Origin: Candidatus Poribacteria bacterium
GTDB taxonomy: Bacteria; Poribacteria; WGA-4E; PCPOR2b
Assembly: GCA_965215015.1 (NCBI GenBank)
Contig: OZ244042.1
Span: 2,944,001-3,008,000, forward strand
Length of the DNA: 64,000 nucleotides
Direction: 5' to 3'
Part shown: positions 37,292 to 45,626 of the stretch, in pieces
Layout of the letters: every line of letters begins with the position of its first letter
Position numbering within the stretch: position 1 is the first letter of the stretch
The notes under the pieces: generated by a model
Database searches by the model: none
What the model saw: the letters and a program-made list of their open reading frames with translations, nothing else
What the model was told of the DNA's origin: nothing
Program-made: the position numbers and the translations under genes

Positions 37292-38131
37292 ATGAAAACT
37301 TTTACGACAAAGTTAAGTACAGTCGGTATCGGCTTAATTATCTTGAATATAGTGTTCACGGCGGTGAGCGATGCCCAGTTGAGAGGACGTAAATTTCTAG
37401 AAGCGGCTGTTGCAATATGGACCTTTGAAGAAGTCGGTAGAGTTGGCGTCCCGGATGTTACCGGCAACGGTCATGACGCGAAGTTGGTAAATAAGCCCGC
37501 CTTAGTTGATGGGAAATTTGGCAGGGCAATAGAGTTTAGTGACAGCAGAAAAAACTATTTGGAGGTGCCGGATGATGTAGACTTAAACCTTGAAAAGGTC
37601 ATCTCGATTTCGGTATGGGCGAAACGACCACCACGGCTACAAGCGACCGATGTGGCACCTTATTTCATTCTACATAGGGGATCGGAATGGCAGCGTCAGG
37701 GACCAGGTTACGGCATCGCACTCCACAAGGTTTTTAACAACATGTTTTATTTCTGGTATCAAGATGGATTTCAGGGTGCCAGCGGTATCAAGGACGATCA
37801 GTGGCACCACTATGTCGCTGTTGCCAAAGATGGAGAGAGGGCACCAACGCTTTATATTGATGGCGAATCGAAGCCTGTCGAACACGGCGATGGTAAGAAA
37901 AAGATGGTATTGGCACCAGCACAGGGACGACCGATGTACATTGGCGCGTTATTGCCAGAGCGGTTTGACTCATTCAGTAAGAGTACCATTGATGAGCTTG
38001 CTATCTTCAAGGTTGCATTGAGCGCGGCAGATGTAAGGCAGCTCGGAAAGGGAATCGATACAGCAATCTTCGCGGTTTCTCCATCGGGGAAGCTCGCCAC
38101 AACGTGGGCATCAATCAAAAATAGCCATTGA
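37292..38131 (+). CDS. Secreted LamG-like protein (tandem paralog of 36405..37265)
   Basis: Shared blocks GIALHKVFNNMFYFWY and GIKDDQWHHYV; C-terminus FAVSPSGKLATTWASIK. Confidence 0.88.
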   Translation: MKTFTTKLSTVGIGLIILNIVFTAVSDAQLRGRKFLEAAVAIWTFEEVGRVGVPDVTGNGHDAKLVNKPALVDGKFGRAIEFSDSRKNYLEVPDDVDLNLEKVISISVWAKRPPRLQATDVAPYFILHRGSEWQRQGPGYGIALHKVFNNMFYFWYQDGFQGASGIKDDQWHHYVAVAKDGERAPTLYIDGESKPVEHGDGKKKMVLAPAQGRPMYIGALLPERFDSFSKSTIDELAIFKVALSAADVRQLGKGIDTAIFAVSPSGKLATTWASIKNSH

Positions 38132-38164
38132 CCCCCCAGGTTCCACCCCAAGGGATATTTTCAA

Positions 38165-39013
38165 ATGAAATATATGAACAAAATTGCGGTTTACAGTGTA
38201 GTTTTTGTGCTGGGACTCACTAGTTTTGCAGTAGCAGCGCAAAAGGTGGTTCCGGGTGCGGTGATCCACCTCGATGCCAGAGAGCAGAATAAGCGGGAAA
38301 TCGCTTGGAAGAACCTCGGTTTAGCCGGTGGAAAAATGCCAGCCGACAATGAGGTGCCTGAATTTGAAGCGGGGAAAATCAGAATACCCGTACTCGGTAT
38401 CAATGAGGACGCAAAGTGGTATACCGCCACACGAAAGTCCGAGACTTTTGGCGGTCCCCCGGATGTACTCCCCAAATTGCAACTTGAGGATTGGACAATG
38501 GAGGTTCTCATCAAACGCAACGGTCCCAAGTGGCCAGATCTCGTTGTGGCTTCCCAAGTCCTCGGATTTAAATCACGTGATAGGGAATTGCAACATTTTC
38601 AGGTTTCTCTCAACGGACCGGATACCGGCGAACTCATCGCACGGTTTAAGGGTCGAGCAAATAATAAAGGGAAGTGGTTAATCCCGGAAGATCTCGGCAT
38701 CGATATTAAGGAAAAGGAGTGGCACTGGATTGCGTTTGTCTTCACCGATCAGAAAACAGTTGAAACCTACCAAGATGGTGAAGAGGTTGGGAGGGTTGAG
38801 ATTAATCAGGATTTTGATCCTGAAGAGCCGGTATGGCTATCAATATTTTGTTCCAATGACAGGGATCGAAACTTCAACGGCTCAATCGCTATCCTTCGTA
38901 TTTACGACAGACCGTTGAGTAGAGACGAGATTCTCCAAAACATCACAGGTAAGTTGGCGGTTGAACCAACCGACAAACTGACAACAGCCTGGGCACAGAT
39001 AAAGGCACACTGA
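38165..39013 (+). CDS. Secreted LamG-like protein
   Basis: Signal peptide; WHWIAFV, YQDG, FNGSIAILRIYDRPLS; C-terminus LAVEPTDKLTTAWAQIK. Confidence 0.85.
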   Translation: MKYMNKIAVYSVVFVLGLTSFAVAAQKVVPGAVIHLDAREQNKREIAWKNLGLAGGKMPADNEVPEFEAGKIRIPVLGINEDAKWYTATRKSETFGGPPDVLPKLQLEDWTMEVLIKRNGPKWPDLVVASQVLGFKSRDRELQHFQVSLNGPDTGELIARFKGRANNKGKWLIPEDLGIDIKEKEWHWIAFVFTDQKTVETYQDGEEVGRVEINQDFDPEEPVWLSIFCSNDRDRNFNGSIAILRIYDRPLSRDEILQNITGKLAVEPTDKLTTAWAQIKAH

Positions 39014-43019: not shown

Positions 43020-43227
43020 AGAGTATCATATATTATTTCTCGAATCACCGTGTTACAGACCACAGCAAAAGAACAACTGAAAGCCTGCTCGTAGCTTGTC
43101 CTCAAATGAAGTGAAGCAAGTACAGCAAAAGGGATTCCATTACGAAGCAATCTCTGTAACAGTGAAAGTTGGATTTAATCTCAGAACGAAGCAATCAAAA
43201 AAAATTGGAGGCAGAACACAAAAACTG

Positions 43228-44100
43228 ATGAACAAACTCAAATTAGGCATTCCCAAAGGATCGCTACAGGCATTCACTATTGATCTTTTCAGACAAGCAG
43301 GTTATACAATTACAATCAACGGTCGGTCGTACTATCCACATATCGACGACAACGAGATCGAGGTGATGCTGCTGCGCCCACAGGAGATGGCACTCTACGT
43401 AGAACGCGGTGTCCTCGATGTGGGGTTAGCAGGACGAGATTGGGTCCGCGAATGCAACGTTGACGTACTAGAAGTCGCTTCGCTAACCTACGGCAAGCAA
43501 ACCAGGCAGCCAGCGCAATGGGTGCTAGCAGTCGCGGAAGATTCTCCCATCCAGTCTGTCGCCGATCTGGAAGGGACAGTCATTTTCACCGAATTGGTTG
43601 AAGCGACCAAATCATACCTCAAGGATAATGGCATCAATGCGACCGTCAAATTTTCACACGGCGCAACAGAGGTGAAGATTCCTCATCTCTGCGATGCAAT
43701 TGTAGAGCTTACGGAGACTGGTAGCACCTTGCGTGCTAACCAATTAAGAATTGTCGATGTCGTCATTGAATCGGTAACGATGTTGATCGCCAATAAGGAG
43801 AGTTGGGAGGCTGAATGGACGCGCAACAAGACGGAAAGTTTGTACATACTCCTTGCCGGGGCGTTGGCGGCACAAAACAAAGTCGGCCTCAAAATGAACA
43901 TTGCCCAAGAAAACCTTCAATCTTTGCTTGCCATTTTGCCGGCGATGAGAAAGCCCACGATTTCCCAACTTAGCCAAGATGAATGGTATGCTGTCGAAAC
44001 GATTGTTGATGAGCACATTGTCCGGGACTTTATCCCAGAGCTTAGGAATGTGGGAGCAGAGGGCATTATTGAATATCCGTTGAGCAAGGTAATTCCGTGA
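43228..44100 (+). CDS. hisG: ATP phosphoribosyltransferase (long form)
   Basis: LKLGIPKGSL, LRPQEM, GATEVK, DAIVELTETGSTLRAN, PTIS regulatory domain. Confidence 0.96.
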   Translation: MNKLKLGIPKGSLQAFTIDLFRQAGYTITINGRSYYPHIDDNEIEVMLLRPQEMALYVERGVLDVGLAGRDWVRECNVDVLEVASLTYGKQTRQPAQWVLAVAEDSPIQSVADLEGTVIFTELVEATKSYLKDNGINATVKFSHGATEVKIPHLCDAIVELTETGSTLRANQLRIVDVVIESVTMLIANKESWEAEWTRNKTESLYILLAGALAAQNKVGLKMNIAQENLQSLLAILPAMRKPTISQLSQDEWYAVETIVDEHIVRDFIPELRNVGAEGIIEYPLSKVIP

Positions 44101-44171
44101 TGGGAGAATCGTAAAGCGCGAGTCAATGCTTCCATACTATCTCGGTATGATTTCTATAGGAGATCAATCGA

Positions 44172-44560
44172 GTCAGCTACCCCACCCTAAAAAGTGAGGC
44201 GTGTTGCCTGCCCCTTTGGGATTTCGGGTTATTCGGTCTTGGCTCGTCGCTTTACACGCACGCTACCGAAGGGAAGCAGCTCCCCTTTGGAAGTCAGTTT
44301 TGTAGAGTCGGTGATTCTACTCACTCAACTTTCGTGCGATACCTTGGACAACTTCTTCCCGATTGGGAGAAGCGAAAACGAGCGTTTTCCTGAGGCGTCG
44401 AGCTACACAATATGACTTTAATACATTAACCGTGTTGTGTCAACAAAAAAGGAGTCGCAGTCTCCCCCGCAGATACCTGATACTGTTGCGTAACATGCCA
44501 GGCTGATTGAGCCAGAACTATAGCGCAACACGCTGGTATTTACGGGGGCTCCACTGCAAA
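44172..44560 (-). mobile_element. Non-autonomous IS200/IS605-like element with a candidate omegaRNA-like transcript
   Basis: Minus-strand 3' end GCCTCACTTTTTAGGGTGGGGTAGCTGAC (right-end-like hairpin); 5' long hairpin CCCCCGTAAATACC...GGTATCTGCGGGGG; no tnpA/tnpB ORF. Confidence 0.55.
44415..44443 (-). promoter_or_regulatory. Sigma70-type promoter inside the IS200/IS605-like element
   Basis: TTGACA-17bp-TAAAGT on the minus strand, pointing to the right-end hairpin. Confidence 0.5.
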
Positions 44561-44567
44561 GATTTTG

Positions 44568-45626
44568 ATGAAATTTCAGATCAATTTATGTTTTTTTCTT
44601 ATCCTGATTTGGGCGATTATCGGCCTCGGGTGCGGCGCAGATTCGCCTTCTCCTTCGGTTGATTCCGGAGAAGTATCTGAACAGACACCAAACATGGAAA
44701 GGGAGAACGCTTCACAGTCTGGAACGGTATCAGGAATTATCACTGACGCCACGACGGGAACCCCGATTCCGGGGGTAACTGTCAGTTTGCTAAATCAGAT
44801 GGTGAAAACTGGAGTAGAGGGCAAATATGTTTTCACAGGGATTCGTTATTCGGAGACCCACAGTTTAGCTGTCATGGGCATCAATTATCAACCTAAAATG
44901 AAGCAATTTGAACTTAGGACTGAACAAGTAGAATTAAATATTTCTCTCGCTCCGAAGCTTGGGGCGGTGTCAGGCGTTATTACTGATGGCACAACAGGGA
45001 ACCCGATTGCGGGCGCAACTGTCAACCTATTAGGGCGGACTATGATAACCGAAGTAGATGGTAGATACAATTTCACACAGGTTCCCTATTCAGGGGCTCT
45101 CAGTTTAATGATTACAGCTATTGATTATCAAACCAAAACAGAAAGCTTTGAACTGAGGGCTGGCCGTGTTGGATTGAACATCCGCCTTATGCCCTCGACG
45201 AATCCTGAGACGGAGATTAATCAATTCTTGGAACGTTTCTCAGCACTAATTGAATCATTGGATGTGGGTAAATTGGGAACAATCCAAGAACTCTTTTCGG
45301 AAACTTACCTTGCAGGAGATGATCCTATTACGCTCCTTGGTTTAGCCACAGGCGTTATTCCCGCAACATTCGATGAAGTTACTCCAACAATTATTAAAGT
45401 GTTTGAAAAGTATGATGCCCTCCAATTTCAGTTTAATAAAATTCGAGTGGAGGTGACTAATTCACGTCAGGCTTCCGCGCGGCTTACCTTACACATCATC
45501 AGCGAAGAGGGGCCACAACCCAACAAAAGAGAGATTATCGTTGATTGTCAAATAGATTTCCGCAAAGAGGGCTTGGTGTGGAAAATAGTATTCTGGCAAC
45601 TTTTCAACGTCGAAATTCTTCTATGA
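44568..45626 (+). CDS. Lipoprotein with two carboxypeptidase-regulatory-like (Ig/CNA-B) repeats
   Basis: Lipobox GLGC; repeats GTVSGIITDATTGTPIPGVTV / GAVSGVITDGTTGNPIAGATV; NTF2-like C-terminus. Confidence 0.75.
   Translation: MKFQINLCFFLILIWAIIGLGCGADSPSPSVDSGEVSEQTPNMERENASQSGTVSGIITDATTGTPIPGVTVSLLNQMVKTGVEGKYVFTGIRYSETHSLAVMGINYQPKMKQFELRTEQVELNISLAPKLGAVSGVITDGTTGNPIAGATVNLLGRTMITEVDGRYNFTQVPYSGALSLMITAIDYQTKTESFELRAGRVGLNIRLMPSTNPETEINQFLERFSALIESLDVGKLGTIQELFSETYLAGDDPITLLGLATGVIPATFDEVTPTIIKVFEKYDALQFQFNKIRVEVTNSRQASARLTLHIISEEGPQPNKREIIVDCQIDFRKEGLVWKIVFWQLFNVEILL

Follow-up and report, generated by a model that had tools for sequence, protein, structure and literature searches.

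A protein-less IS200/IS605 element of Poribacteria encoding an omegaRNA-type RNA with an additional 5′ domain

A window of 64,000 nt from the genome of a Candidatus Poribacteria bacterium (assembly GCA_965215015.1, contig OZ244042.1, positions 2,944,001 to 3,008,000; genome G000 below) contains a hairpin-rich insert between hisG and the gene of a 352-aa protein. The initial annotation had read this insert as an ORF-less, non-autonomous IS200/IS605 element with its own promoter, an omegaRNA-type scaffold, and a guide taken from the flanking DNA. The questions raised by the locus are which element it is, what RNA it encodes, and whether this RNA would serve a TnpB protein. Comparison with empty alleles and with related copies identified the element and established the fold of its RNA.

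Borders and insertion site of the element

The element comprises 396 bp (Table 1). Read along the minus strand, the target motif is followed by the element from 44567 to its last base, 44172, which closes the terminal TGAC. No credible protein-coding frame was found inside it, the only one listed being a 73-aa GTG frame on the plus strand, so the ORF-less character assigned initially was borne out. The assignment to non-autonomous IS200/IS605 elements also held, since the ends are common to tnpB-bearing elements and empty sites were found. The promoter hexamers, the hairpins, and the end reading ...GGGGTAGCTGAC with the last base 44172 lie where they had been placed; of the annotated span 44172..44560, the right end was retained, and the left end was extended to 44567.

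Table 1. Features of the element and its surroundings in the window.
Feature	Position	Strand	Basis
hisG (ATP phosphoribosyltransferase), host gene upstream of the element	43225..44100	+	PF01634 (E 1.6e-39), PF08029
Predicted 16-nt guide in the right flank, antisense to the native RBS region	44156..44171	−	Length by analogy with ISDra2 (text of PMC10097598)
Native Shine-Dalgarno AGGAG of the 352-aa gene, 9 nt from the insertion point	44158..44162	+	Sequence
Whole non-autonomous IS200/IS605 element, 396 bp	44172..44567	−	Empty sites, ends common with tnpB elements
Structured RNA core, 235 nt, first paired base to element end	44172..44406	−	Alignment of 27 copies
Right end: guide word CACG (44203-44200), hairpin (44199-44180), terminal TGAC (44175-44172)	44172..44203	−	
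OmegaRNA-homologous part	44233..44285	−	
Stem 1; pseudoknot loop GCTGC (44280-44276)	44285-44271	−	
Stem 2	44269-44265 paired with 44237-44233	−	
Canonical stem-3 segment, pairing with the 5′ domain instead	44261-44257, 44249-44246, 44245-44242	−	
Extra 5′ domain: P1/P2/P3 three-way junction, pseudoknot hairpin, variable peripheral stems	44286..44406	−	Covariation
Sigma-70-like promoter: TTGACA (44443-44438), 17-nt spacer, TAAAGT (44420-44415); predicted start near 44408-44406	44415..44443	−	
Left end: guide word GAGC (44551-44548), long stem, T-run scoring as terminator on the element strand	44444..44567	−	
Candidate split RBS: element-borne Shine-Dalgarno-like AAGGAG	44449..44454	+	Predicted from the fold of 44439-44585
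68-nt repeat in the loop of the left-end hairpin	44474..44541	−	
Dispersed repeat, places	44474-44541; in G000 at 2399547, 1561962, 2724609, 3447433, 4081677, 4633457		
Target motif TTCAT, reverse complement of ATGAA (host-gene start codon)	44568..44572	−	Sequence, empty alleles
Host gene downstream, intact, 352 aa, carboxypeptidase-regulatory-like domains	44568..45626	+	PF13620 (E 1.9e-24)

The insertion lies exactly between the native ribosome-binding site (RBS) and the ATG of the 352-aa gene and parts the two. Orthologs of this gene, whose product is a probable lipoprotein judging from its N-terminal signal, are present in all 20 genomes of the genus. The empty-site allele, proposed earlier as a check, was found in 17 of them, and the insertion is precise and without target duplication. 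The 17 empty alleles have a short intergenic region with a Shine-Dalgarno-like purine-rich run at a similar distance before the ATG; ATGAA is kept in 16 and reads ATGCA in one. The same base is occupied in three genomes: G000 and G004 have RNA elements there, and G002 has a tnpB element that contains a secondary IS. A single inherited insertion was rejected because the three genomes do not form a clade and the RNA cores of G000 and G004 (67.5% identical) have diverged beyond the host gene (80.5% over its first 600 nt); therefore, the site was hit repeatedly or its cargo was exchanged. No joint skipping the element was detected in contigs from four runs of one study, a negative that carries no weight.

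The long hairpin of the initial annotation corresponds to the left-end stem, and its loop turned out to hold a 68-nt repeat (44541-44474) in place of the usual short loop. The DNA hairpin of the left end is more stable than expected (z −2.48; 2 of 200 shuffles equally stable), largely because the repeat fills the loop. This repeat occurs in four other left ends of G000 at 87-94% identity, with weaker matches at 15 further places. The repeat, marked by the word GCGCTATAG, is dispersed and present both in left-end hairpin loops and elsewhere, at no fewer than 20 places in G000.

The promoter-like site of the window copy is by itself not above chance (1 found against 0.8 ± 0.9 expected in shuffles), and neither is the fold of its RNA (z −1.41; 17 of 200 shuffles equally stable). 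The support for both therefore comes from the family, through covariation and promoter position: in 23 of 36 non-redundant copies, a distance of 6-8 nt separates the end of the best −10-like hexamer from the first paired base, which supports the promoter-like site suggested initially. Several copies of a second family have an extra leader between the −10-like hexamer and the core. In loci L266 and L271 of that family, a tnpB-type leader is followed by a second short leader duplicating part of the core and then by the core, giving a longer RNA.

Structure of the RNA core and its 5′ domain

The structure model was scored on a sequence-only alignment of 27 copies chosen for length from the 36 non-redundant cores. 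Its 45 pairs are formed in 95.0% of alignment cells, compared with 86.2 ± 0.5% in shuffled and 30-50% in slid controls. Two-sided changes affect 22 of the 45 pairs in this alignment of related sequences, so that the counts overstate independence. One-sided changes of the G-U type fit the minus strand only, as at pair 8-121 (GU in 24 copies, GC in 3).

Four features of ISDra2-type omegaRNAs are retained in the 235-nt RNA, namely the pseudoknot, stem 1, stem 2, and the hairpin of the right end (stem 4). In the ISDra2 omegaRNA, the stem-1 loop pairs with bases −2 to −6 (PMC10097598), which are 44173-44177 here. Among 72 unique cores, positions −3 and −6 are paired throughout, the latter by four pair types (C-G, U-G, G-C, and U-A); position −5 is paired in 49 and U.U in 23, and position −4 is U.U in 71, as in the tnpB parents. 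The same pattern, including the U.U, was found in 27 of 27 tnpB ends. The register TGCT/GGTA considered for this pseudoknot was dropped in favour of the ISDra2 geometry. Stem 1, the pseudoknot, and stem 2 together are 93.4% paired (76.3% in shuffles). An HMM of the 5′ part of tnpB omegaRNAs scored 11 of the 36 cores above all 1080 shuffles, each at the position of stem 1; the window copy is not one of these 11. When translated, the cores show weak similarity to TnpB (best E 1e-5), probably owing to the common 3′ module.

The scaffold described initially, ending at the right end and taking its guide from the flank, is one that covaries; the suggested comparison with omegaRNA and HEARO models gave no Rfam match. 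The serial hairpins listed with it are present, except that GAAAACG/CGTTTTC is in fact GAAAAC/GTTTTC closing a pseudoknot-forming GCTC loop.

About half of the RNA (~120 nt) is a 5′ domain not found in the omegaRNAs of the parents. In its helix P1, the first four bases are joined to a strand ~155 nt downstream, with G-C/A-U covariation. P2 and P3 make up the rest of a three-way junction whose linkers are near-invariant: their unpaired words read GTCTGAGGTT in 66 of 72 cores and GTAAAGTTACGAGCC in 62 of 72. A second pseudoknot joins the hairpin loop GCTC (44383-44380) to GAGC (44245-44242) just after P1; it is 100% paired, with two-sided changes in three sequences of the 27-copy alignment. The partners of P1 and of the GCTC loop lie in what is the stem-3 segment of the parents; this segment is engaged with the 5′ domain, and no local stem-3 hairpin was found inside stem 2. 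Copies differ in the purine bulge that precedes stem 2. Since the stem 3 contacted by RuvC is replaced and the bulge is variable, binding by TnpB is not assured.

The origin of the 5′ domain was sought in databases and in related loci. Around the window, Rfam had no relevant match up to E 10, and in five related loci there was none up to E 0.5. The core profile (nhmmer, based on sequence and not structure-aware) had no match in 89 tnpB, IsrB, and tnpA loci other than an RNA copy inside one of them; the 5′ domain is therefore not the leader that precedes tnpB genes. No parent with both tnpB and the 5′ domain was found among the regions examined. Rfam and a literature search limited to sources outside subscription journals and supplements contained no account of the domain, and no report joining Poribacteria and TnpB was found in the literature so covered. 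The element type is already known; it is the 5′ domain that is uncatalogued in Rfam and in the literature searched.

PATE-like protein-less IS200/IS605 elements encoding omegaRNAs are known from Geobacillus stearothermophilus (Meers et al., bioRxiv 10.1101/2023.03.14.532601), and stand-alone omegaRNAs have been summarised in PMC10691335. As described in these sources, PATEs likewise have no ORF, share TnpA-type ends with tnpB elements, and provide a right-end omegaRNA used in trans. The present RNA differs in being no simple deletion of a parent: in place of tnpB it has ~120 nt of unrelated covarying structure interlocked with the scaffold. A derivative formed by simple deletion is also present in this genome, at G000:C1:1142124-1142740; it consists of a left end, a fragment of the tnpB leader, a repeat, and a right end and lacks the RNA core. 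It adjoins the end of what we take to be an ftsH-like gene and the start of a presumed folP-like gene, and the sequence of its ends suggests that the insertion split an overlapping stop/start. In comparison with the ISDra2 omegaRNA/reRNA as given in the text of PMC10097598, the RNA shares stem 1 with its pseudoknot, stem 2, a terminal hairpin (stem 4), and a guide from the flank; in contrast to ISDra2, stem 3 pairs with the upstream domain, there is a second pseudoknot, and the element has its own promoter instead of an overlap with tnpB. Protein-less IS200/IS605 elements with trans-used omegaRNAs are already described in the sources cited, as are N|ATGA targets in PMC4810608, and the extra 5′ domain appears to be what is new here.

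Two other identities of the RNA were rejected. The IscB/IsrB omegaRNA (HEARO), which would read inward from the right end with its guide at the 5′ end, gave no Rfam match on either strand, the wobble pattern fits the opposite strand, and the core profile had no match in 12 IsrB/IscB loci. An IStron or group I intron, for which a group I core, a terminal G, and an orientation sense to the interrupted gene would be expected, was rejected in view of the lack of an Rfam intron match (general, not subtype-specific, models), the ends TGAC/TGAA, and the antisense orientation to the host gene at start-codon sites. IStrons are IS605-type elements (bioRxiv 10.1101/2023.11.20.567912) and likewise combine a large structured RNA with a means of sparing the host gene; by comparison with that account, the present elements have no group I intron features, lie antisense to the host gene, and would spare it by RBS replacement, not splicing.

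Family, start codons, and a candidate ribosome-binding site

The search of the genome and its relatives proposed in the initial annotation yielded a family of 66 distinct sites and tnpB elements with the same ends. In G000, five full cores were detected by BLAST and by a profile from which the window copy had been left out; a sixth core is truncated. A 27-nt pattern had 94 matches in a species-genome collection; among the 80 listed, 79 belong to Poribacteria, and the other is a chance match. L111 (Pirellulaceae) was judged to be a chance match. With two mismatches allowed, the pattern occurred in 35 of 151 genomes of the phylum, from three genera and two families, with almost no control matches; the largest copy numbers were 50 in G002 and 21 in G004, and one of the matches, L269, was judged to be chance. 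Outside Poribacteria, viral sequences gave 0 and then 6 matches judged to be chance (at least five inside long ORFs), and a metagenome scan gave one, also judged to be chance. Plasmids yielded only a 35-nt right-end match and phages none.

The 66 sites were obtained from 109 loci (L013-L042 and L048-L127, L111 excluded). The target motifs are TTCAT (42), CTCAT (9), ATCAT (4), and NTCAC (11); NTCAT or NTCAC is thus present at all 66, partly by construction of the search. Both ends were recognised in 61 elements, of which 57 have a length of 331-520 bp and the others of 604, 816, 1347, and 1375 bp. The longest closed ATG frame is ≤79 aa in 59 of the 61; the two longest elements hold a larger ORF, a secondarily inserted transposase-like gene. 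A further 29 regions (some truncated, one a duplicate, one a chance match) contained no native ORF. An IS with a 267-aa transposase-like frame has been inserted repeatedly in the left-end region (L202, at G002:C1:3192900-3196000, and L076, L080, L106, and L123). In addition, small repeats nest in the element and leave the core untouched: a palindromic unit (ATCCCGAT..ATCGGG) lies between the right guide word and its hairpin in L033, L113, L108, L114, L054, and L052, and a TTCACTAGTGAA palindrome is inserted in peripheral stems. For 15 of 57 elements, a copy with 98% identity or more is present at another site, and such near-identical copies at different sites indicate mobility; the nearest relative of the window copy is 77.5% identical.

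Subterminal hairpins are present at both element ends. In Y1 transposons, guide words at the hairpin feet are complementary to the cleavage motifs, as established in work on IS608 and ISDra2. Among the left ends, 51 of 61 obey this rule, and among the right ends, 56 of 60; its variants TCAC/GAAG and TGAA/CAAT covary between subfamilies. The right guide word of the window copy conforms (CACG/TGAC), and the left one, GAGC, is one base off the GAXA rule of the family. Intact elements with tnpB only, such as L042 (404 aa; PF01385, PF07282, and PF12323), agree with the family in their left end, in the position of the promoter, and over the last 55-75 nt. The core was found with different left and right ends in two families, and the pseudoknot covaries with each new right end. 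IsrB-type elements have ends in common with the family and their RNA on the opposite strand. At L047 (G000:C1:61250-61620), an IsrB/IscB relic with the same left end precedes the start codon of a gene resembling that of a metal-dependent repressor; the RNA of this relic runs inward from the right end and is not related to the core.

As the target corresponds to ATGA on the opposite strand, many insertions fall on start codons. At 36 of 55 distinct TCAT sites, a frame of 150 or more codons starts on the opposite strand, and all five full copies of G000 lie at such starts; in a crude G000 background, the same is true of 11.9% of non-coding or start ATGA sites (1504 of 12,607; short genes were counted as intergenic, and kin are not independent). 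Because the tnpB elements are likewise found at start codons (7 of 13 recognised left ends), the bias is a property of the ends and not of the RNA. One copy (L017:1270-1604) lies directly before an rpsD-like start in what we take to be a ribosomal-protein/rpoA-like operon, and another (L034:1500-1600) before a presumed pyrG-like start, which indicates that insertion at the starts of housekeeping genes is tolerated.

N|ATGA targets are known for IS605B/ISC transposons, e.g., IS605B-1_MA of Microcystis (PMC4810608). According to that paper, these have the same 4-bp target and cut position, no duplication, and tnpB and iscB/isrB cargo on opposite strands between common ends. The terms 'start codon' and 'translation' are absent from its main text; here, by contrast, start codons account for about two thirds of the sites, and a candidate RBS is present in the left end.

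In the direction of the host gene, the AAGGAG of the left end is followed by a stem-loop, ~10 nt, and the ATG; with the stem looped out, AAGGAG lies at 2 nt plus the stem plus 10 nt from the ATG. An unpaired Shine-Dalgarno-like word at an effective spacing of 5-14 nt was found at 37 of 55 sites. The window copy was not scored as a split RBS by the script, and in the longer fold (44439-44585) its AAGGAG is unpaired. Two left ends without the distal word have AAGGAG 7-8 nt before the ATG. According to these folds, the left end may supply a split RBS to the host gene. On the element strand, a terminator is predicted from these bases, so that the Shine-Dalgarno-like word may be a by-product. Split sites are known from genes 25 and 38 of phage T4, where a stem-loop between the Shine-Dalgarno sequence and AUG shortens the spacing, in gene 25 from 27 to 11 nt (PMC3014915). 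Compared with the T4 sites as described there, the putative site differs in that its stem would be a transposon end and its linear distance ~50 nt (113 nt in the window copy). No report of an RBS in IS605 left ends was found in the literature outside subscription journals and supplements. If true, the start-codon bias and the built-in split RBS would give IS200/IS605 elements a second means of sparing host genes, one that needs no splicing. Three solitary left ends occur on the minus strand of G000:C1 (2778280, 4784271, and 4626445) with no cargo or right end nearby; two of them have the proximal Shine-Dalgarno form, before ORFs of 266 and 325 codons. Solitary left ends are possibly retained as ribosome-binding sites.

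Proposed role of the RNA and alternative explanations

It appears rather probable that these elements are PATE-type parasites of tnpB elements, moved by TnpA, whose free guide is used by TnpB and stabilised by the 5′ domain. In favour of this are the precise empty sites, the guide words, the ends common with intact tnpB elements, the ISDra2-type pseudoknot, the HMM matches at stem 1, the near-identical copies at different sites, and the PATEs already described; against it stand the failure to find a parent with both tnpB and the 5′ domain, the replaced stem 3 and variable bulge, the U.U at positions −4 and −5, and the left guide word of the window copy. The TnpA of another element would move the protein-less element in trans, and the internal promoter would give a ~250-nt transcript running through the right end into the flank. 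TnpB made in trans would load this RNA and cut empty alleles (TTCAT plus flank), into which the element would be copied back. A free RNA cannot load in cis from tnpB mRNA; hence the 5′ domain, modelled as pairing the very first nucleotides and locking onto the stem-3 segment, is most likely a stabiliser that would let the RNA fold and survive until TnpB binds. The left end would re-supply an RBS, and the host gene would survive. A bolder reading, possible if doubtful, is a protein-less lineage with a dedicated RNA gene, in which a TnpB/Cas12-type guide core is joined to a new invariant double-pseudoknotted domain and swapped between IS ends. That domain would add RNA catalysis, recruitment of an effector or host factor, or a change from cis to trans TnpB loading, and the RBS-rebuilding left end would make a near-silent, start-codon-targeted selfish element. 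Loading of TnpB in trans would make the RNA a naturally occurring guide scaffold with its own promoter and a protected 5′ end, relevant to guide engineering for compact editors and to the way in which omegaRNAs became free-standing tracr-like RNAs towards Cas12.

The distribution of TnpB bears on these readings. Cognate-type TnpB was detected at 1e-30 in 18 of the 19 other genomes of the genus, not all intact, with 88 TnpB-protein matches in G002 and 63 in G004. G007 and G017 have 22 such matches each and no RNA copy, and G000 and G001 have RNA copies and no such TnpB, which speaks against the PATE-type reading. Open tnpA frames of 141-175 aa are present in G002, G038, and G128. The PF07282 proteins of 528-568 aa in G038, G128, and G141 were rejected as an orphan cognate effector; they lie behind recombinase-like genes, presumably of IS607 type. 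In G134, a tnpB gene lies 1.7 kb away from an RNA copy; it was rejected as a partner because it has its own end and an unrelated gene separates it from the copy.

The G000 genome is a single contig and 98% complete. All of its 19 PF07282 and 4 PF01385 matches lie in frames of ≤109 aa, no cognate-type TnpB was found at 1e-30, tblastn with five TnpBs returned fragments only, and both tnpA matches are broken. Empty alleles of relatives match 5-9 of the first 12 bases of the predicted guide, and no second TAM-adjacent exact 8-nt guide target exists in G000. With no intact TnpB or TnpA and no second target, the window copy is probably an orphan, and probably immobile, that keeps the fold with few mismatches. 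For this copy, the loading of a TnpB encoded elsewhere, as envisaged initially, thus finds no support, given the short frames and the lack of a cognate-type match in G000, and neither does the regulatory role proposed alongside it, given the lack of a second target.

A TnpB-independent job is unlikely. In such a case, the three-way junction would be a catalytic core, e.g., self-cleaving near the 5′ end, or would bind a different protein, the omegaRNA parts being inherited scaffolding, and the RNA would represent a new conserved ncRNA fold with another partner or activity. It would explain the near-invariant junction words, the occurrence of the core with different left and right ends in two families, and the persistence of the RNA in genomes without cognate TnpB; moreover, in the 10 of 22 PF07282 matches of G038 that were read, there was no orphan TnpB without its own element. 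Against it, the pseudoknot covaries with each right end, as use by the WED-RuvC clamp of a TnpB/Cas12-type protein predicts, no Rfam ribozyme matched, and the hammerhead-like reading fails. Type III hammerheads have a CUGANGA and GAAA core with stem I; here, the core is CUGAGGU / GUAAA, with U at the equivalents of A9 and G12, and stem I would have one pair. The window copy changes two core bases, and the alternative register is 97.9% paired.

The retained pseudoknot together with the replaced stem 3 would also suit a decoy that binds TnpB and blocks cutting, dampening TnpB toxicity or competing for sites, of which the common site, with an RNA element in G000 and in G004 and a tnpB element in G002, could be an instance. 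We regard this as distinctly improbable, because a decoy has no need for a 3′ end running into the flank, and the biggest expansions (G002 and G004) occurred in the genomes with the most TnpB matches, which would be expected if TnpB aids the element and is not hindered by it. That the element is a passenger spread by TnpA alone, its structure kept for handling of single-stranded DNA or for harmlessness in host mRNA, is highly improbable: the decay of several G000 copies by insertion or truncation would agree with it, but not the strand-specific G-U-type changes, the conserved promoter position, or the covariation of two long-range pseudoknots. Finally, guidance of a nuclease-dead (TldR-like) TnpB regulator repressing the gene whose RBS the guide covers is hardly credible, since the Shine-Dalgarno-like words in the flank at 25 of 31 start-codon sites, to which the guides are antisense, follow automatically from insertion at ATGA and pass the same loose test at 10 of 19 other sites, the TAM is separated from the target on the occupied allele, G000 has no intact TnpB-family frame, and the guides differ at every site.

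Elsewhere in the window, positions 37292-39013 encode two secreted-type proteins with a KL(A/T)T(T/A)WA.IK tail, which we take to be typical of Poribacteria proteins.
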